Shown here: positions 1-38,740 of the stretch, in pieces
Layout: every line of letters begins with the position of its first letter
Position numbering within the stretch: position 1 is the first letter of the stretch
IMG/VR virus record: IMGVR_UViG_2531839663_000007
From: a virus
Lineage: Duplodnaviria; Heunggongvirae; Uroviricota; Caudoviricetes
DNA length: 39,027 bases
Strand: one strand, 5' to 3'
Program-made: the position numbers and the translations under genes
The notes under the pieces: generated by a model
Seen by the model: only the letters and a program-made list of their open reading frames with translations
What the model was told of the DNA's origin: nothing
The model's database searches: none

Positions 1-1053
1 TTACGGGGTAATGCCAACCGCTGCCGCCACTTTGTCGCCACTTGGCAGCGTTGCCAGAGGATTGAAACGGAGCGCCGTTTCCAGATGATCCGGTGCCAGA
101 TGTGCGTAACGCATAGTCATTTTTATATCGTGGTGTCCGAGAATTTTTTGTAAGGCCAGAATGTTTCCACCCGACATCATGAAGTGCGCCGCAAACGTAT
201 GGCGCAGAACGTGTGTGAGTTGACCGCGAGGGAGCACGATAGACGTTTTTTCCATCACGGATAAAAATTGAAAATAGCAGTCTGTGAAGAAATTGAACCC
301 ATCAAGCGCCATGATCTCTTCGTAAAGCTCTTTACTGATAGGGATGCTTCTGTTTTTCTTCCCCTTCGTTCTTACAAAGGTAATTCGGTATTTGGTCACC
401 TGTGAACGAGTAAGATTTACGGCTTCTCGCCAGCGTGCGCCTGTGCTTAAGCATATCTTAACTACCAGTGCCAGAATTGGGTCCTGACGTTTGCAATCAG
501 CCAGTAATTCAACAATCTGCTCATGGGTAAGCCATGCCATCTCTTTTTCTGCGATGGTGAATTTTCGCATGTTCTCCAGTGGGTTCGGATACGACCATTC
601 GCCCAGGCGGGATAGTTCGCTAAAAACACTACTTAGATAGCTTTGCTCCAGGTTAATGGTGACCGGGCTTGCTCCTTTCTTCCATTTCTCGCTGAAGTAG
701 ATCTCACCTGTCAGGCGTTTATCTCGATAGTGGGCAAACATTTTAGAGGTTAGATCAGTTGCAAGGGGATTGCCCAGAGCGTCAACCATCAGCAGCAATT
801 TGTCATAGACATGCTGCCCAGCTGTCAGTGATTTACCATGTAGTTTGAACCATAGCTCAACCACGTCTTTCAGTGTTCGACGATCCACTGATTCACCTAG
901 CCAGGGCTTTGCTTCGGTTTCTTCCATCGTGTGACGCTCAAAAGCCAGTGCTTCGCCTTTGGTGGCGAATTGTTTACGCACACGACGTCCACTACGTCCG
1001 GCGGGGTAACATTCGCAAAGCCATTTTCCTGTGGTGAGTTTTCGTACTGCCAT
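1..1053 (-). CDS. int: Tyrosine integrase (P2/186 Int family), 350 aa
   Basis: Full-length ORF; C-terminal region with HxxR and H..Y catalytic-type residues (LTHVLRHTFAAHF, MRYAHL); sits at prophage end next to repressor. Confidence 0.9.
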   Translation of the reverse strand: MAVRKLTTGKWLCECYPAGRSGRRVRKQFATKGEALAFERHTMEETEAKPWLGESVDRRTLKDVVELWFKLHGKSLTAGQHVYDKLLLMVDALGNPLATDLTSKMFAHYRDKRLTGEIYFSEKWKKGASPVTINLEQSYLSSVFSELSRLGEWSYPNPLENMRKFTIAEKEMAWLTHEQIVELLADCKRQDPILALVVKICLSTGARWREAVNLTRSQVTKYRITFVRTKGKKNRSIPISKELYEEIMALDGFNFFTDCYFQFLSVMEKTSIVLPRGQLTHVLRHTFAAHFMMSGGNILALQKILGHHDIKMTMRYAHLAPDHLETALRFNPLATLPSGDKVAAAVGITP

Positions 1054-1136
1054 AAAAAAGCCCTCATATCAGAGGGCTAAATTTAACTGTATATACAACC
1101 AGTAATCAATGTGTGATTGCTATGAAACATACATTG

Positions 1137-2813
1137 CTAAGCAACATGTAGTTCATCGTTGGCGGAAGTGGCTGCTTTGCGTTCCTGCTCAATAGCTAGT
1201 GACTCTCTATATTCTTTCGCCTCTGCAAACATTGTCCAGTGGGCATTGATGTTCATATCTTCAATAACCGATTTAATTTCTTTAATATTTACGTTAAAAA
1301 ACTCTTTTCGTGAGTTAATTTTATTGACCTGCTTTTCGTTGAAGACTTTATGCAGATGATTTTCTAATGACGGTGCATCATCACTATAAATCATCGCATG
1401 AACATCGAACGAAAAAGGAACACTAGCATCCCCAAGTTCACGAACACGATCAAGTGGTTCAAGGCGGCGTGTCATTCCAATTTTATATACATCTTCGCCA
1501 AATGAGCCAATATTGCTAATTATATAAACATGGCCTGATCTAGTTTGTTGAGCCATAGAAATAGCTCGTTGGTTTTTAGCTTCAGCTTCTTCATATTTTA
1601 ACTGTAGTTCAGCTATTTTTTGCTCTAAAGCTAAGCGTTGTTCTTCATTTGCAAGCATAAGCTCTTTCGTTGCTTTATTTATAGCTTGCTGAATAGCTTT
1701 CTCTTCTTTTTCGGCTTCTTTTATCGCTTTTTCATACTCTCTACGAGCTCTTTCCTCTTCACGAAGCTGTTCTTTAATCCTTCTTTGCTCCTCTTTTTCT
1801 TCGAGCATAATTTCATTAACTGCTACACCCCATTTTAGCTCGTTGAGTCTTGCCTGAAGATAGATGTCACTTATTTTTGCGGACCTAAAGGCAGAGCCAT
1901 TGTAATTTACTAGTTGAAATGCATCTTTTATTTCTTGGGAAAGTTTTCCAAAATTGTTGTGTTTGACTTTTGATAAAATACTGTCAACTCTTCCATTGAA
2001 GGCATCCAAAACAAAGTTTATGGCAGTATTACGCCTGTTTTGCTCAACATAATCACACGAAGCAGCTTTATTAGTTTTTATTAATGATTTGGTTAACTCT
2101 CTGGCTTTTTGTAATTCCTTGCCTGCATCTGTAAATTCATAATTTTCTGCCAGCTCATCAAGTACACTACGGTTAGGGATGATCCATTCATCACCATAAC
2201 CTTCAATTTTATTTTTCATTGATTTTGCAACTGCTTCATATTTTTCTGCAAACTCTTTAGCTTCATATGCTGAACCAGCAATCTCCTTTGCTCTTTCTTC
2301 TGCATCAGAAATAATTTTTACTGCATTGTCATTAGCATTTGAGATTAGCTCATTTGCTTTATTATTAGCATTATCAAGACGTTCTTTGGCTTTCAGGCGT
2401 GCATCGCGAGCGTCTTTGGTGATTGCTATAGCTTCGCTATTAGCGTTGCTTATTGTCATCTGAGCTTGATAATTTGCTTCGTTTACTGTTTTAGCCGCCT
2501 TAATTTGGGCTTCATCTATTTTTTGCTTGGCTATTGAGTCCGCATTTTTTATCTTATTCTCTGCATCCATTACTGCGCTGTGCAATTCTTCGTATTGCCA
2601 CAATGGTGCTGCTCGCCCTTCAAGCTCTGATAATTCTCGTACGGTCTGTGCTAGTTTTTCTTGATTTTCAATCAGTTGGTTAGAAAGGGCTATGTTGTTA
2701 GCGGTCAGGTTATCTATAGCCGCTTTGTGTTTTTTACTTTGTTTAAATAATATTACAGCTAGAACAGGGGCGAGAAATGCTAATAAGAGTATAACGATGG
2801 CAAATGAATTCAT
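1137..2813 (-). CDS. Membrane-anchored coiled-coil protein with C-terminal T5orf172/MUG113 (GIY-YIG-like) domain, DUF4041-type architecture, 558 aa
   Basis: N-terminal hydrophobic helix (FAIVILLLAFLAPVLAVILF), long Ala/Lys/Glu-rich coiled-coil, C-terminal motif GHVYIISN..VYKIGMTRRLEPLDRVRELGDASVPFSFDVHAMIYSDDAPSLENHLH; AAGGA RBS; visibly AT-rich versus flanks. Confidence 0.75.
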   Translation of the reverse strand: MNSFAIVILLLAFLAPVLAVILFKQSKKHKAAIDNLTANNIALSNQLIENQEKLAQTVRELSELEGRAAPLWQYEELHSAVMDAENKIKNADSIAKQKIDEAQIKAAKTVNEANYQAQMTISNANSEAIAITKDARDARLKAKERLDNANNKANELISNANDNAVKIISDAEERAKEIAGSAYEAKEFAEKYEAVAKSMKNKIEGYGDEWIIPNRSVLDELAENYEFTDAGKELQKARELTKSLIKTNKAASCDYVEQNRRNTAINFVLDAFNGRVDSILSKVKHNNFGKLSQEIKDAFQLVNYNGSAFRSAKISDIYLQARLNELKWGVAVNEIMLEEKEEQRRIKEQLREEERARREYEKAIKEAEKEEKAIQQAINKATKELMLANEEQRLALEQKIAELQLKYEEAEAKNQRAISMAQQTRSGHVYIISNIGSFGEDVYKIGMTRRLEPLDRVRELGDASVPFSFDVHAMIYSDDAPSLENHLHKVFNEKQVNKINSRKEFFNVNIKEIKSVIEDMNINAHWTMFAEAKEYRESLAIEQERKAATSANDELHVA

Positions 2814-2833
2814 TTTAAAATCCTTTTACTATA

Positions 2834-3430
2834 TTAATTCGAGACTATTGTACTTCTTATACAAGCAACCACTTCAATATCAGAAAATGCACATTCAAAG
2901 CTATTCTCTGCTGTTGTAATTTTAATCATTCCTTTAGGAAGCCTTGTGATTTTTCGAATGGAATAGGTTCCGTCGATATTGATTAACCAGTTTCCATCAA
3001 GTACTTCAGAAAATTTTTGATCACAAATGTATGTGACGAGTCCATCCTGAACAACAATTGGTGATGAAAGGTTTGCAGGAAGAAATGATGAATCGAAGAC
3101 ATATGAACCGTCTTCAATCATTTTGCCTGCGGCAAGGCGAAACTTAACAAGCTCTTCTGTAGCTGCTGTCAGCGAGCTTTGCTTAAGGCCTTGTCCGGTA
3201 GTTAACCATTTGAGGGAGGTTCCTGTTTCAAGAGCACATTGGATTATCCAGTCAGCAGGAAATGTATCCCGCAAATACCTGTTCGCTAGTGTGCTTTTTG
3301 ATACTTCCAAGTGATCAGCTAAAGCCTGTCGTGTCGTAAAGCCATAGGCTTCGACTAATCGCTCAATCGCAGCCTTACCACCTTTATTGGGATTTATTTT
3401 GATCTCACTTGGGTACTTTGATGTTGACAT
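2834..3430 (-). CDS. cI: CI-like immunity repressor (186 CI-type), 198 aa
   Basis: Recalled similarity to 186 CI (AYGF..NRY.R, ALETG..L.WL.TG, EC..D C-terminal region); position between int and divergent apl/cII. Confidence 0.8.
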   Translation of the reverse strand: MSTSKYPSEIKINPNKGGKAAIERLVEAYGFTTRQALADHLEVSKSTLANRYLRDTFPADWIIQCALETGTSLKWLTTGQGLKQSSLTAATEELVKFRLAAGKMIEDGSYVFDSSFLPANLSSPIVVQDGLVTYICDQKFSEVLDGNWLINIDGTYSIRKITRLPKGMIKITTAENSFECAFSDIEVVACIRSTIVSN

Positions 3431-3464
3431 ATCTCTTTTGCGATCCTAGTATCAGTTTTGTACC

Positions 3465-3480
3465 CAATTGGGTACTTGTC
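3465..3480. promoter_or_regulatory. Perfect 16-bp palindrome GTACCCAATTGGGTAC in the cI/apl divergent control region (candidate operator)
   Basis: Palindrome read directly between cI start (3430) and apl start (3526); partial copy TTGGGTAC near 3407-3414. Confidence 0.45.
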
Positions 3481-3525
3481 ACGATTACTACAGGCTCACC
3501 ACAAGCCAATAGGAGATGTTGCATC

Positions 3526-3747
3526 ATGACCCCTAACATTTCAATAACTCTGAATACGCCACACGTCACAATCGAGCGTTATAGCGAACTTACTGGTCTT
3601 TCAATCGACACAATCAACGATATGTTGGCGGATGGTCGCATTCCTCGGCATCGTCTTCGTAAAGACAAGAAAAGAGAAAAGGTAATGATCAACCTTGCTG
3701 CTCTTACCGTTGATGCACTTACTGATTGCAATGTTGTATTCAACTAG
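3526..3747 (+). CDS. apl: Apl/Cox-like excisionase and transcriptional regulator, 73 aa
   Basis: Small basic protein transcribed divergently from cI; AGGAG RBS 10 nt upstream of ATG at 3526; position as in 186. Confidence 0.65.
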
Positions 3748-3779
3748 TTCCATTTTGGGATACATCAGAGGTGTCGACC

Positions 3780-4289
3780 ATGTTTGATTACCAAGTTTCC
3801 AAACATCCACATTTTGATGAAGCCTGTCGTGCATTCGCACTGCGCCACAATCTGGTGCAACTGGCAGAACGTGCGGGCATGAATGTGCAGATTCTGCGGA
3901 ACAAGCTGAACCCAGCTCAACCTCATTTATTAACCGCACCAGAAATCTGGCTGCTTACCGATCTGACTGAAGATTCAACGTTGGTAGATGGTTTTCTGGC
4001 ACAGATTCATTGTCTGCCATGTGTACCGATTAATGAGGTAGCAAAAGAGAAACTGCCGCATTACGTCATGAGCGCAACTGCAGAGATCGGGCGTGTTGCA
4101 GCAGGTGCGGTATCTGGTGATGTAAAAACTAGTGCCGGTCGTCGTGATGCTATCAGCAGCATTAACTCTGTAACACGACTGATGGCGCTGGCTGCTGTTT
4201 CATTGCAAGCCCGTTTACAGGCTAATCCTGCGATGGCGAGTGCAGTTGATACCATGACTGGCCTTGGTGCTTCATTCGGTTTGCTGTGA
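3780..4289 (+). CDS. cII: CII-like lysogeny establishment regulator, 169 aa
   Basis: Size and position match 186 CII (169 aa); GAGGTG RBS; internal ATG chosen within the track ORF 3726-4289. Confidence 0.6.
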
Positions 4290-4296
4290 GGTGTTT

Positions 4297-4593
4297 ATGC
4301 TGACGAAAGAACCATCATTTGCATCGCTGCTGGTAAAACAAAGCCCGGCAATGCACTACGGTCACGGCTGGATCACGGGTGAGGATGGAAAACGCTGGCA
4401 TCCATGTCATTCACAAGATGAATTGCTGTCTGAATTGACCACGAGGAAACGGAGAAAGTCCAAATGTATGCGGCAGAAAGTGAAGTGGTTTATCAGTTTC
4501 GTTACAGAGGGGAGAGTTATTCAGTACCTGAAGATGATTTGCTCTGTTGCTATCCGTCATTGTCGGGCGATGGCAGTTACTTTTTCACGTTAA
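4297..4593 (+). CDS. Hypothetical early-region protein, 98 aa
   Basis: ORF with GAGGTG RBS right after cII; overlaps the next ORF in another frame. Confidence 0.35.
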   Translation: MLTKEPSFASLLVKQSPAMHYGHGWITGEDGKRWHPCHSQDELLSELTTRKRRKSKCMRQKVKWFISFVTEGRVIQYLKMICSVAIRHCRAMAVTFSR

Positions 4594-5353: not shown

Positions 5354-5580
5354 TGGCTGATGCAATGGATCTCGTACAGCAGCGCGTTGAAGAAGAACGC
5401 CAGCGCCATATCCGTGCAGCCCGTGCCAAATCACCGGGCGTGTCACGCGTACTTTGCATTGAATGTGAAGCGCCAATTCCGCCAGCACGACGCCGCGCCA
5501 TTCCGGGAGTGCAGCTTTGCATTACCTGTCAGGAAATCGCAGAACTGAAAGGCAAACATTACAACGGAGGTGCTGTATGA
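5353..5580 (+). CDS. TraR/DksA-family C4 zinc-finger protein, 75 aa
   Basis: CxxC..CxxC pattern (CIECEAPIP...CITCQE) typical of TraR/DksA; coupled to neighbours. Confidence 0.7.
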   Translation: MADAMDLVQQRVEEERQRHIRAARAKSPGVSRVLCIECEAPIPPARRRAIPGVQLCITCQEIAELKGKHYNGGAV

Positions 5581-6434
5581 GCACCATCCTGAAATGGGCG
5601 GGAAATAAAACCGCCATTATGCCAGAACTGAAAAAATACCTTCCTGCTGGCCCGCGACTGGTTGAACCTTTCGCGGGTTCCTGTGCTGTGATGATGGAAA
5701 CGGATTATCCCAGCTATCTGGTTGCGGATATTAATCCTGATTTAATCAACCTCTATAAAAAGGTTGCCGCTGATTGTGAATCGTTTATATCTCGCGCCAG
5801 AGTTTTATTTGAGATCGCAAACAGGGAGGTGGCTTATTACAACATAAGGCAGGAGTTTAACTGCTCAACTGAAATTACTGATTTCATGAAAGCGGTATAT
5901 TTCCTGTATCTCAATCGTCACGGTTACCGTGGTTTATGTCGCTATAACAAGAGCGGGCATTTCAACATTCCCTACGGTAATTATAAAAATCCGTATTTCC
6001 CTGAAAAAGAACTTCGCACATTTGCAGAAAAAGCCCAGCGAGCGACGTTTATCTGCGCCAGCTTTGATGAAACGCTGGCGATGTTGAAGGCGGGAGATGT
6101 GGTGTATTGCGATCCGCCATATGACGGTAAGTTTTCCGGCTATCACACTGATGGTTTCACTGAAGATGACCAGTATCACCTGGCATCCGTTCTTGAACAT
6201 CGGTCATCAGAAGGACATCCGGTCATTGTTTCTAACAGTGACACATCCCTGATCCGTTCGCTGTATCGCAATTTTACTCACCACTATATCAAGGTAAAAC
6301 GCAGCATCGGTGTGGCAGCTGGCGAGGGTAAATCAGCAACAGAAATCATTGCTGTTTCCGGGCCGCGCTGCTGGATGGGATTTGATTATTCGCGTGGCGT
6401 GGATAGTTCTGCCGTGTACGGAGTACGTGCATGA
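5577..6434 (+). CDS. dam: DNA N6-adenine methyltransferase (Dam-like, D12 class), 285 aa
   Basis: N-terminal LKWAGNK and FAGS motifs, catalytic DPPY (VYCDPPYDG); ATGA overlaps at both ends. Confidence 0.85.
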
Positions 6435-9485: not shown

Positions 9486-9518
9486 AGGCGATGTCAATCA
9501 GATATCGCCTTGTTTTTT
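9486..9518 (+). terminator. Rho-independent terminator after the DinI-like gene
   Basis: Stem AGGCGAT/ATCGCCT with 11-nt loop followed by TGTTTTTT. Confidence 0.6.
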
Positions 9519-9544
9519 GTCAAGAAAAGAATAATAGGCTAAAA

Positions 9545-10222
9545 ATGAAAATTAATAATGTAGCGTTACCAATATCTCTTGCTGTAATCCTAACTGGTTG
9601 CGTGCCACATGCTTCTAACCGAAATATCACTGCTATTGAAGTGGTGAAGCCTGCTATTGGGCAAAGTGCTACCGCCTACATGGGCGATCCCATTATCACA
9701 TCTGCTACTGGATTTAAAACGGACGTACTAGAACTTGGTGCGGCTAATGGTGCATTGTCTTCTATCGCTGCTGGTACATATTGCAGTGAGGGGAATGGAA
9801 TTTACCGCAATTATCATAACCCTCAAGCTGTTGCGTTAAAAAATCTCTATGGGCAAATCGGTAACTATGTTGATTATGTTAGTTACGATGCTGCAAAAAA
9901 TGAGATATCACCGCCAAATGGTACTTCTTATACTGCATCAGAAATTTCTATCAAACGTGTTCCTGATGGGCTGTGTCGAGTTAGTAACTCATTGGTTAAG
10001 ACTATCGAATACAATGGAAATGCAGGCGGTGTAATGAAGTTCACCTATCGTGAATTTGCAAACGATATGGCTCGTGCAGCATTTACAACAGATTTTTCTG
10101 TAGATTCTAAGGGAAGTGACGTTATCGCTTACAAAGGTGCCAAGTTCAAAGTGAACAAGGCTGATAACTCGTCTATTTCTTATACAATTATTTCTGGCTT
10201 TGACAAGGCTGTCACGTTCTAG
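9545..10222 (+). CDS. Lipoprotein of unknown function (moron), 225 aa
   Basis: Signal peptide with lipobox LTGC (MKINNVALPISLAVILTGC); flanked by terminators; reduced GC. Confidence 0.7.
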   Translation: MKINNVALPISLAVILTGCVPHASNRNITAIEVVKPAIGQSATAYMGDPIITSATGFKTDVLELGAANGALSSIAAGTYCSEGNGIYRNYHNPQAVALKNLYGQIGNYVDYVSYDAAKNEISPPNGTSYTASEISIKRVPDGLCRVSNSLVKTIEYNGNAGGVMKFTYREFANDMARAAFTTDFSVDSKGSDVIAYKGAKFKVNKADNSSISYTIISGFDKAVTF

Positions 10223-10493: not shown

Positions 10494-11558
10494 ATGGCAG
10501 AAAACGGACCTCGTGAAGACTTGGCGAAGCTGGTGTCCCATAAACTATTGGAAAGATTTAAGTGGAAGCAACACGGTCCGACCGATCATGATTTTCCGTG
10601 TACTGAACAAGAATTACACAAGCCAGCGGAAAAAACGCAAGACCACACACATCCAGTTGATATTGTCTTTCATTATAAAGATCCTTACTTAAATAAAATT
10701 GTTTATCTAAATACTGATTTGAAAAGTTATTCAAAAGGGTCTTTAAATTCTAAAATGGTTGAAAATGCTTTAGATTCCTTAGCAAAAACTATTCATTGTG
10801 CGCAGAATAGTCAGGTATGGAAAAGTCGCTATGAGACAACCATGTCTAAAAGTGAAGTACGAGGGTTACTTTTTGTATATAATCATGATAATGACTATAA
10901 GCATAATTTCTATGACTATTTTTATCCTCCTAAACCCAAAAAAGGGAAAAGACCTGCGGCAGTTAATTTAGACAGAGTAAATGTATCTGAAAATCAGCAA
11001 ATACATATAATTGAGCCACGAACTATTAGTTATCTTATGTCTGTTGTTGCTGATATGAACGAAATGATTGCGGAAAATAAATTCCCGCGTGATGATTATG
11101 GGTTCTATTATCCTCAATTAATACTTCATAAGGTTGTGACTGCAGAAGAATATCTTCCAGCTACAGTGGAAACTCTAACATCCCCCTACATGATAATTAA
11201 ACATGGTCCAGTAATAGAATATAATAGAGCTAAAAAGGAGGACGAGCTGGTTTATCCTGAAGGGTTTATTGTTTATTACAACCGCTCCGGTAAAACAGAC
11301 TTAGAGTTTAATTATTTATTAGATACTCTAGCTAACTACCAGATATTAAACTCAAAAAATAATATTAGAATTAGAGTAGCATGTATTGATAAAAGTGAGC
11401 ACATACGGACTAATTTTATAAAAGCTATAGAAAAATTTTCATATCAGTGGGGATATGATGAATCTATGAAGGAAAAATTATTATCTATTGAGCTATATAT
11501 TGTGCCTCTATCTCGAGAGCAATATTTAACAGAAGAAAGATCATGGGATGTTAAATAA
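10494..11558 (+). CDS. Unrecognised protein, gene 1 of three-gene cargo operon, 354 aa
   Basis: AAAGGAGAA RBS 7 nt upstream; AT-rich; possible PD-(D/E)xK-like motif (PVDIVFHYKD...YLNTDLK) is inference only. Confidence 0.75.
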   Translation: MAENGPREDLAKLVSHKLLERFKWKQHGPTDHDFPCTEQELHKPAEKTQDHTHPVDIVFHYKDPYLNKIVYLNTDLKSYSKGSLNSKMVENALDSLAKTIHCAQNSQVWKSRYETTMSKSEVRGLLFVYNHDNDYKHNFYDYFYPPKPKKGKRPAAVNLDRVNVSENQQIHIIEPRTISYLMSVVADMNEMIAENKFPRDDYGFYYPQLILHKVVTAEEYLPATVETLTSPYMIIKHGPVIEYNRAKKEDELVYPEGFIVYYNRSGKTDLEFNYLLDTLANYQILNSKNNIRIRVACIDKSEHIRTNFIKAIEKFSYQWGYDESMKEKLLSIELYIVPLSREQYLTEERSWDVK

Positions 11559-12634
11559 TGAGTGAAATACACAGTGTTACAGACAAAGCTTTATACGAGG
11601 CTTTATGCCAATCACGTGTCACTGATAATGATATGGTGGAATTGTTTTTATCCCGTGGAATTTTGGTGTCAAAAAAAACTGAGCGTAAGCAACTAGCAAA
11701 AAATTTCTCAAAGCTCACTCATGATTATTATTTGCATCAGAAAATTTCTGGAATATTTGGAGGTTTTTTAAGGCGAGAGAAATCTACGGCTATAGTTATT
11801 AAGAATAATATTGATAAGCCACTACTTGTTAAGGCTGCTAATAAGCTTAAAGATCAGCTGGAAAGCGAAGATGATATATGTCATGTAATCAGTGATAAAG
11901 ATTTTATTAAAATTAGCATTACATACTTATCAACCAATTTTGGTAAAAGTGAATTTAACCAAGTAGAGAAGAAAACTGCTGTTTTTGAAATCGAGTCCCT
12001 TTCGGATGGTTTTTCAATTCGTAGGCCTGATAGTGAACAAGCTGAGATTTATAATAAAAAACTACTAAGTATTATCGAACAGGTTATACAAAAGGAAAAA
12101 GATATAGAAGCAACGACTTTAGATACAGAAGAAATCAACCTCGCGAACATCGATGACGCAGATAAAAGAACAGAATTTTTTAAGCGGCTCATCAATGGGT
12201 TGGATGGATATGTTTTAGATGATGTTACGGATGTTTATATCTACCATCCTAAACCTGCTGTCATGGAGGAGGAAGATGGGGATTCTGAAACAGGAATACA
12301 TATTAGCAAAGCATCTTTGAAAGGAGAGGGGGTGCTTAAATCTGAAGAGTTGAATTCTTTGTATGATAGAGGGTTTTATATTTGGAAAATAAGATGGAGA
12401 ATAAAGGATAAATCTACTACTCCAGATCTTTATGATTTTGAAGCTCAGTTTAGTGATCCTTTAGAGTTTAAGAGCTTTTCATATATTTCTAGAGGGGTGA
12501 GGAAATATAAAGGTGCCGGAGAATATAATAAAAATCCGAGCCAATTACCGGATGATGAAGAATATCATTTTAAAAGACTTATTGAAAAAACGGCGCGTTC
12601 AATTATAATGGATATTAATAAAGAGTATGAGTGA
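11558..12634 (+). CDS. Unrecognised acidic protein, gene 2 of three-gene cargo operon, 358 aa
   Basis: Start overlaps stop of gene 1 (TAATG); AT-rich; no Walker A or other motif recognised. Confidence 0.75.
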   Translation: MSEIHSVTDKALYEALCQSRVTDNDMVELFLSRGILVSKKTERKQLAKNFSKLTHDYYLHQKISGIFGGFLRREKSTAIVIKNNIDKPLLVKAANKLKDQLESEDDICHVISDKDFIKISITYLSTNFGKSEFNQVEKKTAVFEIESLSDGFSIRRPDSEQAEIYNKKLLSIIEQVIQKEKDIEATTLDTEEINLANIDDADKRTEFFKRLINGLDGYVLDDVTDVYIYHPKPAVMEEEDGDSETGIHISKASLKGEGVLKSEELNSLYDRGFYIWKIRWRIKDKSTTPDLYDFEAQFSDPLEFKSFSYISRGVRKYKGAGEYNKNPSQLPDDEEYHFKRLIEKTARSIIMDINKEYE

Positions 12635-12642
12635 GATAACAA

Positions 12643-13347
12643 ATGAAAACACTGGATAAAATTAAGTGGAGCAGAGTGAAGTTATCAATAACCTTCTCTG
12701 AACTAATTGATTATTTTAAACGTAATTCTTATGATGAAAGTAAAGGTTATGGTTATACTTTTGTGAATTTTACTGAACATGAAGTTTCCGCTTCTTATGT
12801 TGAAAAGTCATTGCGTACAGAAGTTATTGTATCGCCCGCGGGAGATGAGATAGAACAAGATTTTTTAGAGTATGAAACCATAAAATTTGCATTAAAGCCC
12901 GTATCTAAAAATCTCTCTTTATTGGCTATTTTTAATCCCCCTAAATCTATAAAGAAATTGACGGATAGACTTAGTGTAGATTTCAATTATAGGGTTGGAT
13001 TTGGTTCAATTACCTTAAATTTAAAGGAGTATATAAATTATCTAAGTTTACAGCATTCAATAAGTCTATTACATATTGATAAAATTAAAGTTAGCAATGT
13101 TGTGTTAAATGGGAACTCCAAGGCCTCGGTTGAGATAACTTCCACAAAAAATGCATTGTTAGAGCTAGAAAGTATTTTTACTAACAAAAAATATAATATA
13201 GATAAAGTTAGGTTGCATTGTTTGATTTACGGGGAACCTTCTTTTGTTGAGCTTTCAAAAAGCGCTTTTATTAATTCAGATTCTAATCATCTGGATTTTT
13301 ACTCCGACTTCCTCATTCAGCAATTATCTAATGATGAATTTCGTTAA
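12643..13347 (+). CDS. Unrecognised protein, gene 3 of three-gene cargo operon, 234 aa
   Basis: Starts 8 bp after gene 2; AT-rich; followed by hairpin. Confidence 0.75.
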   Translation: MKTLDKIKWSRVKLSITFSELIDYFKRNSYDESKGYGYTFVNFTEHEVSASYVEKSLRTEVIVSPAGDEIEQDFLEYETIKFALKPVSKNLSLLAIFNPPKSIKKLTDRLSVDFNYRVGFGSITLNLKEYINYLSLQHSISLLHIDKIKVSNVVLNGNSKASVEITSTKNALLELESIFTNKKYNIDKVRLHCLIYGEPSFVELSKSAFINSDSNHLDFYSDFLIQQLSNDEFR

Positions 13348-21768: not shown

Positions 21769-22207
21769 ACTGCAGAAGGTGGACAACTGGCTGAGTGCAT
21801 TATTGGCGAATCTGGAGCCAGCCGCAAGAAGCCGCATGATGCGCCAGCTGGCGCAGGAACTGCGCCGGACACAGCAGCAGAACATCAGGATGCAGCGCAA
21901 TCCTGATGGCAGCAGTTATGAGCCGCGCAGGGTAACAGCACGCAGCAAAAAGGGGCGCATCAAACGTCAGATGTTTACAAAGCTGCGCACCACAAAATAC
22001 CTGAAAACTGCCGCCAGCGCCGACTCTGCCAGCGTGCAGTTTGAAGGCAAGGTACAGCGCATTGCCCGTGTTCATCACTACGGCTTACGTGATCGCGTCA
22101 GCCGCAAAGGACCGGAGGTCCGTTACGCAGAGCGTCGCCTTCTGGGTGTAAATGATGATGTTGAGGCAATGACCCGCGACATGATTCTGCAATGGCTGGC
22201 GGGGTGA
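21761..22207 (+). CDS. S: Tail completion protein (P2 gpS-like), 148 aa
   Basis: Position and size; GTG start overlapping R stop. Confidence 0.75.
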   Translation: MAELQKVDNWLSALLANLEPAARSRMMRQLAQELRRTQQQNIRMQRNPDGSSYEPRRVTARSKKGRIKRQMFTKLRTTKYLKTAASADSASVQFEGKVQRIARVHHYGLRDRVSRKGPEVRYAERRLLGVNDDVEAMTRDMILQWLAG

Positions 22208-22211
22208 TTTT

Positions 22212-22229
22212 TGTATCAGCACTGATACA
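22212..22229. promoter_or_regulatory. TGT-N12-ACA dyad (candidate Ogr/B-type late activator site) upstream of V
   Basis: TGTATCAGCACTGATACA, near-perfect palindrome in the S/V intergenic region. Confidence 0.4.
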
Positions 22230-22275
22230 AGTTGCAGCACTGCCGCCTTTCTTCCCCTGATGGCAACCTTTCCCT

Positions 22276-22854
22276 ATGAACGCACAATTAACCGAAATCA
22301 TGCGCCTTATCACCAACCTGATCCGCACTGGGGTAGTCACCGAAGTGGACAGGACAAACTGGCTTTGCCGGGTGAAAACGGGCGACCTTGAAACTAACTG
22401 GATTAACTGGCTGACGCTGCGCGCGGGTAATGCCCGCACATGGTGGAAACCATCAGAAGGTGAGCAGGTGGTGCTGCTGAGTCTGGGCGGCAATCTGGAG
22501 ACTGCCTTTGCGCTGCCCGCTGTCTATTCGAATCAGTTCGCACCACCGTCGACGTCGGCGGACGCCTGCGTGACAGAACATCCTGACGGTGGCTGGTTTG
22601 AATATGAACCCGCCACCGGGCGCTGGTATGTCAGGGGCATCAAATCTATGGTCATTGAGGCCGTCGACAACATCACCCTGAAAACCAGTGAGTTTGTGCT
22701 GGAGGCTGACCGCACGCGTATTAACAGCGAAGTGGTGATCAATGGTGGTGTTACCCAGAGTGGCGGTGCAATGAGTTCTAACGGGATCGTGGTTGATGCG
22801 CATCAGCATACTGGTGTCCTGAAAGGCGGCGACACAACCGGAGGCCCGGTATGA
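22276..22854 (+). CDS. V: Baseplate spike protein (P2 gpV-like), 192 aa
   Basis: N-terminus MNAQLTEIMRLITNLIRTG parallels P2 V; position. Confidence 0.85.
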   Translation: MNAQLTEIMRLITNLIRTGVVTEVDRTNWLCRVKTGDLETNWINWLTLRAGNARTWWKPSEGEQVVLLSLGGNLETAFALPAVYSNQFAPPSTSADACVTEHPDGGWFEYEPATGRWYVRGIKSMVIEAVDNITLKTSEFVLEADRTRINSEVVINGGVTQSGGAMSSNGIVVDAHQHTGVLKGGDTTGGPV

Positions 22855-29025: not shown

Positions 29026-30198
29026 ATGGCTCAGGATTACCACCACGGGGTGCGCGTTGTTGAAGTCAACGAAGGCACCCGATCTATTACCACGGTGAGC
29101 ACCGCCATCGTGGGTATGGTCTGCACGGGCGATGATGCCGATGCAAAAATGTTTCCTCTTAATAAACCCGTGCTGATCACTGATGTGCTGACTGCCAGCG
29201 GTAAAGCGGGTGAGTCAGGTACTCTGGCCCGTTCGCTGGATGCCATCGCTGACCAGGCAAAACCCGTGACCATTGTTGTGCGTGTGCCGCAGGGTGAAAC
29301 GGAAGACGAAACCACGACCAATATCATCGGCGCAGTGACTGCTGAAGGTAAAAAAACAGGTATGAAAGCCCTGTTATCTGCCCAGTCACAGCTCGGCGTT
29401 AAACCGCGCATTCTCGGCGTGCCAGGCCACGACACCAAGGCGGTAGCTACTGAGTTGCTGAGCGTGGCGCAAAGCCTGCGTGGATTTGCTTACCTGTCAG
29501 CGTATGGCTGCAAGACAGTGCAGGAGGCGATCACTTACCGCGAAAACTTCAGCCAGCGCGAAGGGATGCTGATCTGGCCTGACTTTACTGGCTGGGACAC
29601 GGTGCTGAATGCCGAAGCAACGGCATATGCCACCGCCCGTGCGCTTGGTCTGCGCGCCAAAATTGACGAGCAGACCGGATGGCACAAAAGCCTGTCCAAC
29701 GTGGGCGTGAACGGTGTCACCGGCATTTCTGCAGATGTGTTCTGGGATCTGCAGGACCCGGCAACCGATGCAGGTCTGCTGAACCAGAACGACGTCACCA
29801 CGCTTGTGCGTAAAGACGGTTTCCGCTTCTGGGGTTCCCGCTGCCTGAGTGATGACCCGCTCTTTGCCTTCGAAAACTACACCCGCACGGCGCAGGTGCT
29901 GATGGACACGATGGCAGAAGCACACATGTGGGCGGTGGATAAACCGCTTAACCCGTCGCTGGCCCGCGACATTATCGAAGGTATCCGCGCCAAAATGCGC
30001 AGCCTGGTCAGTCAGGGCTATCTCATTGGTGGTGATTGCTGGCTGGATGAGTCGGTGAACGACAAAGACACGCTGAAAGCCGGAAAACTCACCATCGACT
30101 ACGACTACACGCCAGTGCCGCCACTTGAAAACCTGATGCTGCGTCAGCGCATCACCGATCAGTACCTGGTGAATTTCGCCAGCCAGGTCAGCGCGTAA
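29026..30198 (+). CDS. FI: Tail sheath protein (P2 gpFI-like), 390 aa
   Basis: Position and size. Confidence 0.85.
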
Positions 30199-31080: not shown

Positions 31081-31214
31081 CGGTTGACGATCTGGTGGCA
31101 GATATCGCCACCATTTTTCACTGGCCGCCATCCGTTACTGACGTTATGCCGCTGACCGAAGTGCTGGAATGGCGGTATAAAGCGATTCAGAGAAGCGGGG
31201 CCAACGATGAGTGA
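30778..31214 (+). CDS. E+E' fusion made by programmed -1 ribosomal frameshift at T-TTT-TTG (31,035-31,041)
   Basis: Slippery heptamer in the E frame; the -1 frame stays open to a TGA at 31,212-31,214 overlapping the T start. Confidence 0.6.
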
Positions 31215-34200
31215 TAACAACCTGCGTCTGCAGGTCATTCTTAATGCGGTTGACAAGCTCACCCGCCCATTTCGATCTGCGCAGGCCAGTTCAAGAGAAC
31301 TGGCTGCTGCTGTCAAAAAATCCCGCGATGCAATAAAGCAGCTTGATCAGGCCGGGAGCAGTCTGGACAGCTTCCGAAAGCTGCAGGCAGAAAATCAGAA
31401 ATTAGGCGACAGGCTGAACTATGCCCGCCAGCGTGCAAATTTGCTCAGTCAGGAACTGGGAGCGATGGGGCCGCCTTCGCAACGTCAGGTTGTTGCTCTG
31501 GGCCGTCAACGGCTGGCTGTTCAGCGCCTGGAAGAACGCCAGAAAAAGCTGCAGCAGCAGACGGCGCTTGTGCGTGCTGAACTGTACCGGGCGGGAATTT
31601 CTGCGAAAGACGATGCGGGAGCAACTGCCCGTTTAGCCCGTGAAACATCACGTTATAACCAGGAACTTTCGAAACAGGAGGCGCGGCTGAAGCGACTGGG
31701 GGAAGCTCAGCGCAGGATGAATGCAGCGCGTGCCAGTTATGCCCGTTCGCTGGAGGTGCGTGATCGTATTGCAGGTGCCGGAGCCACCACCACGGCTGCA
31801 GGGCTGGCAATGGGTGCGCCAGTGATGGCGGCAGTAAAAAGCTATACCAGCATGGAAGATGCCATGAAAGGTGTGGCAAAGCAGGTCAATGGTCTGCGTG
31901 ACGATAATGGCAACCGCACTGCACGTTTTTATGAAATGCAGGATGCCATCAAGGCTGCCAGCGAACAGTTGCCGATGGAAAACGGTGCGGTGGACTTCGC
32001 TGCACTGGTTGAAGGTGGTGCGCGCATGAACGTCGCAAACCCTGACGACAGCTGGGAAGATCAGAAACGTGACCTGCTGGCCTTCGCCAGTACGGCAGCA
32101 AAGGCGGCAACAGCCTTTGAGCTGCCAGCGGATGAACTGTCAGAAAGTCTGGGGAAAATCGCCCAGCTCTACAAAATCCCCACCCGCAATATTGAACAGC
32201 TCGGTGATGCGCTGAACTATCTGGATGATAACGCCATGTCGAAAGGGGCAGACATCATTGATGTGATGCAACGTCTGGGCGGTGTGGCTGACCGTCTGGA
32301 TTATCGTAAAGCGGCGGCGCTGGGTTCCACCTTCCTGACACTGGGCGCTGCGCCAGAGGTTGCAGCCAGTGCAGCAAACGCGATGGTGCGTGAATTGTCC
32401 ATTGCCACCATGCAAAGCAAGAGTTTCTTTGAAGGGATGAATCTGCTGAAACTCAATCCTGAAGTGATTGAAAAGCAGATGACGAAGGATGCGATGGGAA
32501 CCATCCAGCGCGTGCTGGAGAAGGTAAACGCGCTGCCGCAGGACAAGCGCCTGTCTGCCATGACTATGTTGTTTGGTAAAGAGTTTGGCGATGACGCGGC
32601 GAAACTGGCAAACAACCTGCCGGAACTGCAGCGTCAGTTAAAACTGACAGCGGGCAATGATGCGCTCGGCTCCATGCAGAAAGAATCCGACATTAACAAG
32701 GATTCACTTTCTGCGCAGTGGTTGCTGGTCAAAACCGGAGCGCAGAACACCTTCAGCAGCCTGGGCGAAACGCTGCGCCAGCCGCTGATGGATATTCTGT
32801 ACACGGTGAAAAGCGTCACGGAGGCGTTGCGTCGCTGGGTGGAAGCTAACCCGGAACTGACAGGCACACTGATGAAAGCATCGGCTGTTGTGGCTGCGGT
32901 TACCGTCGGCCTCGGCACCTTAGCGGTGGCGCTGGCTGCAGTGCTGGGGCCGCTGGCAGTGATCCGTCTGGGATTCTCTGTGTTGGGTATCAAAACGTTA
33001 TCTTCCGTTACGGCAGCAGTAACTCGAACCAGCAGCGCGTTGTCCTGGCTGGCTGGCGCACCACTGGCACTGCTGCGACGCGGGCTTGCTTCATCGGGCA
33101 ACGCCGCAGGTTTACTTACTGCGCCGTTGTCGTCTTTGCGCCGCACGGCATCACTGACGGGAAATGTCCTGAAAACTGTAGCAGGTGCGCCGGTTGCACT
33201 TTTGCGGTCTGGATTATCCGGTTTACGTGCTGTTGCTGTGATGTTTATGAATCCTCTGGCGGTACTGCGCGGTGGACTGGCCGCCGCAGGCACGGTGCTG
33301 CGAGTACTGGCATCTGGTCCACTGGCGATGCTGCGCGTTGCCCTGTATGCCATATCTGGTCTGTTAGGTGCTCTGCTTAGTCCGATAGGTCTTGTGGTTA
33401 CTGCACTGGCGGGTGTGGCGCTGGTTGTCTGGAAATACTGGCAACCCATCACCGCATTTCTCGGTGGCGTGGTGGAAGGATTCAAAGCGGCGGCAGGTCC
33501 CATCAGTGCAGCGTTTGAACCACTTAAGCCCGTGTTCCAGTGGATTGGCGACAAAGTGCAGGCGCTGTGGGGCTGGTTTACTGATCTGCTGACGCCTGTT
33601 AAGTCGACCTCTGCCGAACTGCAGAGCGCAGCGGCAATGGGGCGACGATTCGGGGAGGCACTGGCGGAAGGGCTGAATATGGTCATGCATCCGCTGGACT
33701 CCCTGAAATCCGGCGTTTCCTGGTTGCTGGATAAACTCGGCATTGTCAGTAAAGAGGCTGCAAAGGCGAAACTGCCGGAAAGCGTGACGCGTCAGCAACC
33801 TGCGACGGTGAATGCAGACGGTAAAGTGATGATGCCATCGGGTGGTTTTCCGTCATGGGGATATGGCTTTGCGGGGATGTATGACAGCGGCGGCTATATC
33901 CCGCGCGGGCAGTTTGGCATCGTCGGTGAAAACGGGCCGGAAATTGTCAACGGCCCGGCAAACGTGACCAGCCGGAGAAATACCGCTGCACTGGCTGCGG
34001 TTGTTGCCGGAATGATGGGCGTTGCTGCCGCGCCTACAGAGCTTCCACCGTTACATCCTTTGGCACTTCCCGCGAAAGGCGGCGAAGCGATGGTGAGTCG
34101 TGCAGCCACTGTGCCGCCCGTTCAACGGATTGAGGCACCGACGCAGATCATCATTCAGACGCAGCCAGGACAAAGTGCGCAGGATATTGCGCGGGAGGTG

Positions 34201-34284
34201 GCCCGCCAGCTTGATGAACGTGAACGCAGGCTGAAGGCAAAAGCTAGGAGTAACTACAGCGATCAGGGGGGATACGACGCATGA
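31207..34284 (+). CDS. T: Tail tape measure protein (P2 gpT-like), 1025 aa
   Basis: Very long Ala/Leu-rich protein with coiled-coil and hydrophobic central region; position. Confidence 0.85.
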   Translation: MSDNNLRLQVILNAVDKLTRPFRSAQASSRELAAAVKKSRDAIKQLDQAGSSLDSFRKLQAENQKLGDRLNYARQRANLLSQELGAMGPPSQRQVVALGRQRLAVQRLEERQKKLQQQTALVRAELYRAGISAKDDAGATARLARETSRYNQELSKQEARLKRLGEAQRRMNAARASYARSLEVRDRIAGAGATTTAAGLAMGAPVMAAVKSYTSMEDAMKGVAKQVNGLRDDNGNRTARFYEMQDAIKAASEQLPMENGAVDFAALVEGGARMNVANPDDSWEDQKRDLLAFASTAAKAATAFELPADELSESLGKIAQLYKIPTRNIEQLGDALNYLDDNAMSKGADIIDVMQRLGGVADRLDYRKAAALGSTFLTLGAAPEVAASAANAMVRELSIATMQSKSFFEGMNLLKLNPEVIEKQMTKDAMGTIQRVLEKVNALPQDKRLSAMTMLFGKEFGDDAAKLANNLPELQRQLKLTAGNDALGSMQKESDINKDSLSAQWLLVKTGAQNTFSSLGETLRQPLMDILYTVKSVTEALRRWVEANPELTGTLMKASAVVAAVTVGLGTLAVALAAVLGPLAVIRLGFSVLGIKTLSSVTAAVTRTSSALSWLAGAPLALLRRGLASSGNAAGLLTAPLSSLRRTASLTGNVLKTVAGAPVALLRSGLSGLRAVAVMFMNPLAVLRGGLAAAGTVLRVLASGPLAMLRVALYAISGLLGALLSPIGLVVTALAGVALVVWKYWQPITAFLGGVVEGFKAAAGPISAAFEPLKPVFQWIGDKVQALWGWFTDLLTPVKSTSAELQSAAAMGRRFGEALAEGLNMVMHPLDSLKSGVSWLLDKLGIVSKEAAKAKLPESVTRQQPATVNADGKVMMPSGGFPSWGYGFAGMYDSGGYIPRGQFGIVGENGPEIVNGPANVTSRRNTAALAAVVAGMMGVAAAPTELPPLHPLALPAKGGEAMVSRAATVPPVQRIEAPTQIIIQTQPGQSAQDIAREVARQLDERERRLKAKARSNYSDQGGYDA

Positions 34285-36407: not shown

Positions 36408-38093
36408 TTATCCTAATCCTGGCCATACCATGACGATGATTGTCCCTGCCAGCGTCAGCAGGACGTTGGCGATTGCATAGGTGCCCGCATAGCCCAGCGC
36501 CGGGATGTTACTGCGAGCTGTATCACTGATGATCTCCATTGCCGGCGCGCAGGTACGTGCGCCCATCATTGCGCCGAACAACAGCGCGCGGTTCATTCGC
36601 AATACATAAGCACCGAACAAGAAACAGATAACCACGGGCACCAGACTGACAATCAATCCGGCAATCAACATCTGACCGCCAATCGCGCCCAGGCCGTTAT
36701 TAATACCGCTACCGGCGCTCAGACCAACGCCTGCCATAAACACCATCAAGCCGAACTCTTTCACCATGCTTAATGCACCCTGCGGAATGTAACCGAAGGT
36801 CGGGTGGTTAGCACGCATAAAGCCCAGCATAATTCCGGCGAATAACAACCCGGCAGCGTTCCCCATGCCGAAACTGAATGTGCTGAACTGGAAGGTGATC
36901 ATCCCGATCATCAGCCCAATAACAAAGAAGGCGCAGAATGCCAGCAGGTCAGTGACCTGGCTGTGAATCGAGATAAAGCCGATGCGATCGGCGATGGTTT
37001 TTACGCGGCGGGCATCGCCGCTGACTTGTAAAACGTCACCTTTGTTAAGCACGACGTTGTCATCTATCGGCATCTCAATCTGGCTACGAATGACGCGGTT
37101 AAGGAAGCAACCGTGATCGGTCAACTTCAGTTGTGCGAGACGTTTACCTACAGCGTTATGGTTTTTAACGACCACTTCTTCAGTGACGATACGCATGTCG
37201 AGAAGGTCACGATCGAAAACTTCTTTACCGTTACGGAAGCTGGGATCGAGTCGGGCATGGGCGTCGGGATAGCCTACCAACGCTATTTCATCGCCCATTT
37301 GTAGCACGGCATCACCGTCTGGATTTGCCAGAATCCCGTTACGTCGAATACGTTCAATGTAGCAGCCGGTTTGTCGATAAATACCCAGTTCACGCAGATT
37401 TTTGCCGTCGGTCCAGGCCACCAGTTCCGGGCCGACGCGATAGGCGCGGATCACCGGTAAATAAACCTTACGGTTGGCATCAGTGTCCAGGCCACGTTCG
37501 CGGGCGATTTGCTGGGCGCTGGTCTGTAAGTCCTGATGCTGCAATTTCGGCAAGTAACGCGCACCAACAATCAAACTCACCAGACCGATTAAATAGGTTA
37601 AGGCATACCCGAGGCTCAGATTATCCAGTGCCAGTGAGAGCTGCCTGCTTTCCATGCCGGAATGACGCAGTGTATCGCCAGCACCGACCAGAACCGGTGT
37701 CGACGTCATAGAGCCTGCTAACATACCGGCCGTCAGGCCAATATCCCAGCCAAACAGCTTACCTAACCCTAAGGCGATCACCAGCGCACTGCCAACCATC
37801 ACCAGTGCTAACATTAGGTAATTTTTCCCATCGCGAAAAAAAATGGAAAAAAAGTTCGGTCCGGCTTCGACCCCGACGCAGAAAATAAACAGCATAAAGC
37901 CAAGATTAAGCGCATCGGTGTTAATGCTGAAATGTTGTTGGCCTAATAACAGCGATACGACTAAAACGCCAATGGAATTACCCAGTTGGATCGAACCAAG
38001 TCGTAACTTTCCGAGACATAGCCCAAGCGCGAGGACCACAAATAATAACAGAATGTAATTCCCATTTAACAATTCGGCGACGTTTATATTCAC
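36408..38093 (-). CDS. ybjL: Putative transport protein YbjL (AAE-family transporter), 561 aa
   Basis: Recognised E. coli YbjL sequence and neighbourhood with ybjM and grxA. Confidence 0.9.
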
Positions 38094-38362: not shown

Positions 38363-38740
38363 GTGAAACATAAACAACGTTGGGCGGGGGCAATCTGCTG
38401 TTTTGTCCTCTTCATTGTGGTGTGCCTTTTTCTGGCGACGCACATGAAAGGCGCTTTTCGGGCTGCCGGGCATCCTGAAATCGGCTTGCTATTTTTCATT
38501 CTTCCTGGAGCAGTCGCCAGCTTCTTTTCACAGCGTAGAGAAGTCCTGAAACCTCTGTTTGGCGCAATGCTGGCGGCACCCTGTTCGATGCTCATTATGC
38601 GGCTGTTTTTTTCACCGACGCGCTCATTCTGGCAAGAGCTGGCATGGTTACTAAGCGCGGTGTTCTGGTGTGCGCTGGGGGCACTGTGTTTCTTATTTAT
38701 CAGTAGTTTGTTTAAACCACAGCACAGAAAAAATCAGTAA
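38363..38740 (+). CDS. ybjM: Inner membrane protein YbjM, 125 aa
   Basis: Recognised E. coli YbjM sequence; GTG start. Confidence 0.85.
   Translation: MKHKQRWAGAICCFVLFIVVCLFLATHMKGAFRAAGHPEIGLLFFILPGAVASFFSQRREVLKPLFGAMLAAPCSMLIMRLFFSPTRSFWQELAWLLSAVFWCALGALCFLFISSLFKPQHRKNQ

Follow-up and report, generated by a model that had tools for sequence, protein, structure and literature searches.

A SNIPE/PD-λ-1-family gene, probably encoding a membrane-anchored nuclease of direct antiphage defence, in a P2/186-like prophage between cI and int

The stretch of viral DNA analyzed here, 39,027 nucleotides of the IMG/VR record IMGVR_UViG_2531839663_000007 (hereafter the window), carries at positions 1137..2813 of the minus strand a gene of the SNIPE/PD-λ-1 family. 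Its product is most probably (with a probability of roughly 0.85) a membrane-anchored nuclease, carried as a moron in the slot between the genes cI and int and acting in direct defence at the injection of phage DNA. Judged by profile matches and alignments, the protein is a homologue of the SNIPE protein that was studied experimentally, not that protein itself, and within the family as documented it is nothing unusual, since the variation of its N-terminal sequence and length falls within the range published for the family. The finding as such is already known, because PADLOC and the current RefSeq annotation detect the gene as a named defence family, the mechanism of which was characterized in a study published in 2026. 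Little new knowledge is therefore gained from the recognition of the gene by standard defence-finder profiles.

PD-λ-1 was recovered in 2022 in an E. coli screen that selected functionally for genes acting against λ (Vassallo et al. 2022, PMC9519451) and was renamed SNIPE in 2026, when its mechanism was solved as that of a membrane-bound nuclease cutting siphovirus DNA during injection (Saxton et al. 2026, PMC13190303). [quoted passage not shown] A topology with the N-terminus out and the C-terminus in was demonstrated experimentally, the mutation E414A abolished both defence and toxicity, and W257R made tape-measure binding stronger (PMC13190303). Protection was found against siphoviruses only, with no myovirus or podovirus of the BASEL set being affected (PMC13190303). 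The published set comprised 474 homologues; one transmembrane helix is given for 59% of homologues, and the N-terminal region was the least conserved and most length-variable part (PMC13190303). In Streptococcus thermophilus, a PD-Lambda-1 homologue protected against siphoviruses by >3 logs and carried no fitness cost; of two homologues from this species sharing 98.5% identity, however, one was active and the other inert (PMC12322248). Antiphage activity of the family has thus been shown experimentally (PMC9519451, PMC13190303, PMC12322248), and yet, as that pair indicates, activity can not be assumed for a given member from homology.

The open reading frame starts with ATG and encodes 558 aa followed by a stop codon (1137-1139), in agreement with an earlier reading made from the sequence alone (the sequence-only reading). 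According to our own arithmetic, based on the GC content of the gene (0.371), the probability of an open frame this long arising by chance is about 1e-17. The gene had also been described as clearly more AT-rich than both int and cI. This is true for int (GC 0.483), but the difference from cI is only slight (GC 0.402; GC3 0.322 vs 0.277 in the SNIPE gene). The GC content of the whole window is 0.502.

A search of Pfam (T5orf172, DUF4041) and of defence databases with profile HMMs, which the sequence-only reading had named as a check, gave matches in both Pfam and PADLOC. The PADLOC model PDLC03976 for PD-Lambda-1 matched aa 106-550 with an E value of 8e-120, covering profile positions 36-481 of 491, and a second PD-Lambda-1 model, PDLC03977, matched with an E value of 1.9e-116, the two together spanning aa 106-551. 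The protein also matched PHROG 1847, a family of unknown function (E 1e-132), and in recent RefSeq records the gene is labelled 'SNIPE associated domain-containing protein'. A nearly full-length PD-λ-1 profile match, DUF4041, a GIY-YIG domain with the catalytic Glu and a predicted anchor, by which SNIPE members are recognized, are all present, and the gene stands singly, flanked by cI at a distance of 20 nt and by int at 83 nt.

The N-terminal part of the protein begins with a predicted transmembrane anchor (aa 5-23, AIVILLLAFLAPVLAVILF; 2745..2801, minus strand), which has a 19-residue Kyte-Doolittle mean of 3.16 and is the sole segment of the protein exceeding 1.6. The single N-terminal hydrophobic helix proposed earlier as a membrane tether is thus supported by the hydrophobicity analysis, and an equivalent segment occurs in 42 of 45 sampled family members. 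Four residues precede the anchor and KQSKKHK follows it, and by the positive-inside rule the N-terminus is predicted to lie outside and the C-terminus inside. A helical stalk rich in Ala, Lys, Glu and Asn follows (aa 24-205; 2199..2744, minus strand), with self-similarity at offsets of 11, 25, 36, 47 and 58 residues and with weak matches to DivIVA and to ATP synthase subunits b/E; matches of these types are among the categories listed for the N-terminal portions found in SNIPE homologues with one transmembrane helix (PMC13190303).

[quoted passage not shown] The central domain contains the Pfam match to DUF4041 (PF13250, an accession that now carries the name SNIPE) at aa 267-322, i.e., window positions 1848-2015 (E 3.1e-12; 46.6 bits vs a gathering score of 27). 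The nuclease domain was assigned from the Pfam matches to MUG113 (aa 443-520, E 1.6e-19) and T5orf172 (aa 427-520, E 5.8e-17) together with the motifs GHVY430IISN, VYK444IG446MT, R449/R450, E484 and N497/N500; all three Pfam matches exceed the gathering scores, and the C-terminal T5orf172/MUG113 domain noted in the sequence-only reading was therefore confirmed. The coiled coil of about 400 residues claimed in the same reading did not stand. In the AlphaFold2 model (59 homologues, mean pLDDT 81, pTM 0.39), aa 24-420 are not one coiled coil but are split into a continuous helix (aa 2-204), a compact helical domain (approximately aa 217-309) that contains DUF4041 and a long helix (aa 316-425), after which comes an α/β domain (aa 427-520). 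A PDB sequence search with the full protein found no match at E values up to 1, a Foldseek search with the full-length model was flooded by long-helix proteins, none of them significant, and the NCBIfam profiles yielded coiled-coil matches only, all below threshold.

For comparison, the reference gene was recovered from E. coli 118UI by means of a 43-nt stretch of the published E414A primer. It encodes 500 aa starting with MTQTPLLLAI, as in the cloning primer, and adjoins ren in a lambdoid prophage. Both proteins are single-gene and prophage-borne, and the layout in the AlphaFold2 model, i.e., a short periplasmic N-terminus, one transmembrane helix, a stalk, DUF4041, a long helix and the GIY-YIG domain, fits the published description of the reference. 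The window protein is longer, however, with 558 aa as against 500, its stalk being about 70 residues longer and unrelated in sequence, and its gene lies in a 186-like prophage, with cI and int on either side, instead of next to ren. In BLASTP, aa 265-555 aligned with aa 196-487 of the reference with 49% identity over 293 residues (E 1e-76), and no significant similarity was found across the N-terminal 264 residues of the window protein. The region credited with ManYZ contact in the model for the reference is not conserved in the window protein. In an alignment of 45 sequences, identity to the reference increased along the protein, from 7% in the stalk and 10% in the segment before DUF4041 to 28% in DUF4041, which is the domain of specificity, 45% in the linker helix and 70% in the nuclease domain.

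The residue equivalent to the catalytic E414 of the reference is E484 in the BLASTP alignment (codon 1362..1364, minus strand), with the context DAPSL-E-NHLH in the window protein and DAPSL-E-KKLH around E414, as given by the E414A primer. Glu occupies this position in 44 of the 45 aligned sequences, and Y430, K444, G446, R449, R450, E484, N497 and N500 are either invariant or conserved to 90% or more among 45-61 diverse homologues. On these alignments, the catalytic residues of the nuclease domain are intact. The position of W257 in the reference is taken by K327 in the window protein, where Lys or Arg is the majority state (33 of 45 sampled sequences).

The window is a P2/186-like Peduoviridae prophage, with genes for the tail sheath (29026-30198) and the tape measure protein (31207-34284), and its first 4300 positions (1-4300) are 98.8% identical to Escherichia phage vB_EcoM-813R9. 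In E. coli genomes, prophages with the int-SNIPE-cI region adjoin rcdA. Directly upstream of the SNIPE gene lies the gene for a CI repressor of the 186 type (2834..3430, minus strand; Pfam Phage_CI_repr and Phage_CI_C), and downstream of it the gene for a tyrosine integrase of the P2/186 type (1..1053, minus strand; Pfam Int_N and Phage_integrase). The spacer between cI and the SNIPE gene is 20 nt long (2814..2833, minus strand) and contains AAGGA, a Shine-Dalgarno-like sequence, 7 nt ahead of the ATG. A promoter of its own for the SNIPE gene was considered and dropped, as this spacer is so short and no promoter-like site was found in it. In phage 186, according to its annotation, cI and int abut and the lysogenic operon is transcribed from pL and pE. 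Because of the common strand, the 20-nt spacing, the lack of a promoter-like site in between and the operon of phage 186, we infer that the SNIPE gene is transcribed together with cI in the lysogen, cI presumably being the first gene of the lysogenic operon. Between the SNIPE stop codon and the int ATG there is a GC-rich hairpin with a T-run that resembles a terminator (1054..1078, minus strand). An alignment showed that the hairpin is conserved, with co-varying changes in the stem, in prophages with other cargo, although single-nucleotide differences defeat a search for the exact pattern; on this comparison it belongs to the phage backbone and not to the cargo.

The SNIPE gene is cargo and not a core P2/186 gene, as had been claimed in the sequence-only reading. 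The slot between cI and int is empty in phage 186, holds a 63-aa ORF in BLR(DE3) and GPEC1292, a 323-aa unknown protein in CFT073, a P-loop NTPase with a small ORF in PSJ-29 and a 349-aa unknown protein in Klebsiella phage 4LV2017, and contains several extra genes where a 53%-identical SNIPE relative is present. In Klebsiella prophages the order cI-SNIPE-int is identical and the SNIPE gene stands alone. The same integrase type was found in 1,136 of 5,426 complete E. coli genomes, and only 164 of those 1,136 carry the SNIPE gene, which contradicts, as far as distribution is concerned, the notion of a conserved core gene in all related prophages. In P2-related phages of Vibrio, the interval from cI to int was previously reported as a hotspot of defence genes (PMC9122126), and in enterobacterial 186-like prophages the slot is likewise a site of cargo exchange.

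An exhaustive search recovered 1,407 cluster representatives of homologues at E <=1e-30. Identical proteins of 558 aa occur in E. coli, and forms 83-85% identical to them were found in Klebsiella, Citrobacter, Salmonella, Enterobacter and others. Relative to an 84%-identical Klebsiella allele, pN was 0.096 and pS 0.766, a value at which synonymous sites are saturated. By region, pN was highest in the stalk (0.153) and lay between 0.054 and 0.057 in the central domain, the linker and the nuclease domain. On these sequence comparisons the SNIPE gene is under strong purifying selection, with the stalk/adaptor region evolving faster.

By homology with the reference, the nuclease would be held at the membrane via its anchor; during injection by a siphovirus, the central DUF4041 domain would engage both the tape measure protein and the arriving DNA, and the GIY-YIG domain, with E484 as its catalytic Glu, would cut the DNA as it enters, so that the cell survives. 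The resident prophage would remain unaffected since only DNA that is being injected is attacked. This would constitute direct defence rather than abortive infection. The sequence-only reading had suggested an effector of either phage exclusion or abortive infection; the defence role is borne out by the homology to PD-λ-1/SNIPE, and exclusion at entry is the option that was shown for the reference, but abortive infection was not upheld. As an abortive-infection or toxic effector, the nuclease would have to be released or activated against the host chromosome and kill the cell before phage release. The enzyme is evidently capable of self-damage, since the reference SNIPE without its anchor cuts the chromosome and is toxic (PMC13190303). 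However, the predicted anchor is retained in the window protein, and with the reference it is injected phage DNA and not host DNA that is degraded: 32P-labelled λ DNA was degraded on entry, and the induced resident λ prophage was spared (PMC13190303). Moreover, infection even at high multiplicity does not kill cells that carry the full-length reference SNIPE, in contrast to those with the abortive-infection control PD-λ-3, and for this reason the reference does not act by abortive infection (PMC13190303). Abortive infection is accordingly a very improbable explanation for the window gene. It is about as improbable that the protein serves the prophage itself, either by excluding related P2/186-like phages or as a nuclease in its own lytic cycle. 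The gene lies where a Peduoviridae prophage has its lysogenic operon region, classically a place for exclusion genes, but its absence from most prophages with the same integrase argues that the phage life cycle does not require it, and the reference, apart from its lack of effect on the myoviruses and podoviruses of the BASEL set, leaves the induction of resident λ unaffected.

In GenBank phage records and JGI annotation the gene is labelled as 'chromosome segregation ATPase' or 'vacuolar-type H+-ATPase subunit H', which, along with the weak coiled-coil matches to SMC, DivIVA and ATP synthase subunits b/E, would point to a coiled-coil protein with a structural or cell-cycle function; a mobile GIY-YIG homing endonuclease might be considered as well, as T5orf172 domains are also found in endonucleases encoded by phages. 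Both identities are barely credible. The match to SMC_prok_A reached 15.5 bits, in contrast to a cut-off of 729.4, and was limited to the linker helix; the other coiled-coil matches were also far below the cut-offs and confined to the helical stalk, and Pfam revealed no ATPase domain. A membrane anchor and DUF4041 are not features of homing endonucleases, and there is no intron or intein context. The two ATPase labels rest on coiled-coil noise and are effectively refuted by the profile scores, and the correction of these misleading phage-record labels is one use of the assignment to the SNIPE family made here.

The window gene represents a natural allele that is common, with 164 carriers among 5,426 complete E. 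coli genomes and further occurrences in Klebsiella, Citrobacter, Salmonella and Enterobacter, and its N-terminal half is wholly unlike that of the studied protein. An allele differing in this half could help to dissect the specificity of SNIPE. With its longer, unrelated stalk resembling ATP synthase subunit b, its diverged DUF4041 surface and K327, the allele could conceivably differ in specificity, being independent of ManYZ or using another inner-membrane conduit and acting on a different set of siphoviruses, a tentative proposal to which we would give somewhat short of even odds. If it is true, the pair of natural alleles in E. coli would lend itself readily to mapping the way in which SNIPE proteins locate the sites of injection.

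The S. thermophilus homologues belong to the same family according to defence-finder tools, but they differ in their Gram-positive host and chromosomal locus, and their activity and range are allele-specific. The GIY-YIG nucleases Slx1/HIGLE, I-TevI, UvrC, Eco29kI and PD-T4-3 are more remote, with 13-28% identity over 57-92 aligned residues, and they are soluble proteins with other targeting domains. Superinfection-exclusion proteins of the HK97 gp15 type are, like SNIPE, prophage-encoded, located in the inner membrane and active at genome injection, with a specificity that is linked, as in SNIPE, both to the tape measure protein and to a sugar permease of the host. These proteins block entry without a nuclease, whereas members of the SNIPE family destroy the entering DNA. 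Zorya and Kiwa resemble SNIPE in being membrane-located defences that act where the phage genome is injected or close by, but they are multi-gene systems of unrelated proteins and are thought to sense perturbation of the envelope and not the tape measure protein (PMC13190303). Consistent with the mode of defence proposed here, there is no disadvantage for a prophage with a contractile tail in bearing a weapon by which, in the reference, myoviruses and resident prophages are left unharmed.

The position between the repressor gene cI and the integrase gene int, where the window holds its gene for a nuclease of the SNIPE/PD-λ-1 defence family, is a cargo swap site of enterobacterial 186-like prophages. 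Comparison of this position covered the related loci L003, L005-L009 and L014. The slot is empty in phage 186, whereas elsewhere it holds a 63-aa ORF, unknown proteins of 323 aa or 349 aa, a P-loop NTPase pair, or a multi-gene set including a Peptidase_M78/HTH pair. The length of cI also differs among related prophages, from 570 to 942 nt. A second variable slot lies on the far side of int, between int and the chromosome junction (L009:5041-6269 and L008:5076-5408), at the place that orf69 has in phage 186; strain GPEC1292 carries a Panacea-domain protein and a 251-aa unknown protein there.

The leader upstream of int (window 1054-1128, minus strand; about 85 nt) is conserved across prophages with different cargo. 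Within it are an inverted repeat of the form ATGTATG..CATACAT and a promoter-like element, TTGACA-N16/17-TAAAAT, of which the window has a weaker version. It also includes a GC hairpin followed by a T-run and ending at the int ATG. Changes in the stem of this hairpin co-vary. The hairpin and T-run could act either to terminate the lysogenic transcript or to attenuate int.

Two phage records (GenBank ON470620 and OM835953) name the SNIPE gene 'chromosome segregation ATPase', and JGI records call it 'vacuolar-type H+-ATPase subunit H'; both labels are wrong and were derived from coiled-coil similarity. The helical stalk of the protein, between the membrane anchor and the central domain (aa 24-205; window 2199-2744, minus strand), showed self-similarity at offsets of 11, 25, 36, 47 and 58 residues, a hendecad-like periodicity reminiscent of the dimerisation domain of ATP synthase b. 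The pattern may point to a right-handed coiled coil. In E. coli DETEC-S560 (NZ_CP116094.1, 1542550-1545564), the gene matches in two pieces, beneath which an IS4-like ISVsa5 transposase is annotated; together, the split match and the annotation suggest that the defence gene was interrupted there by an insertion sequence.

The interval from gpA to the portal gene, a classic P2 hotspot, houses further ORFs on the plus strand. PADLOC matched three in succession to Hp1 (window 10494-11558; 2.7e-62), Hp2 (11558-12634; 7.9e-40) and Hp3 (12643-13347; 3.1e-14), none of which had a match in Pfam. We take this trio to be the Rst_3HP system, a name that was found in the literature. In the same slot, a 243-aa ORF (9491-10222) had no match in PADLOC or Pfam. 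In Escherichia phage vB_EcoM-813R9, a Hypoth_Ymh protein is encoded where the window has the Hp1-3 genes, although the two phages are otherwise near-identical. They also differ in the second P2 hotspot (Z/fun position), at the junction of gpS and gpV, which is empty in the window (22207-22276) but contains two genes in vB_EcoM-813R9, one for a hypothetical protein and the other for a 'putative enzyme with ATPase activity'. In the early region, at a position where phage 186 has other genes, the window carries a gene for a Dam-like orphan DNA adenine methyltransferase (5517-6434, plus strand; PADLOC oMTase, E = 1.5e-110).

The right part of the window includes host rather than phage genes, i.e., an Asp-Al_Ex/TrkA_C permease (36408-38093, minus strand) and YbjM (38363-38740, plus strand), which places the end of the prophage before about 36.4 kb. 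The first base of the window coincides exactly with the int stop codon.
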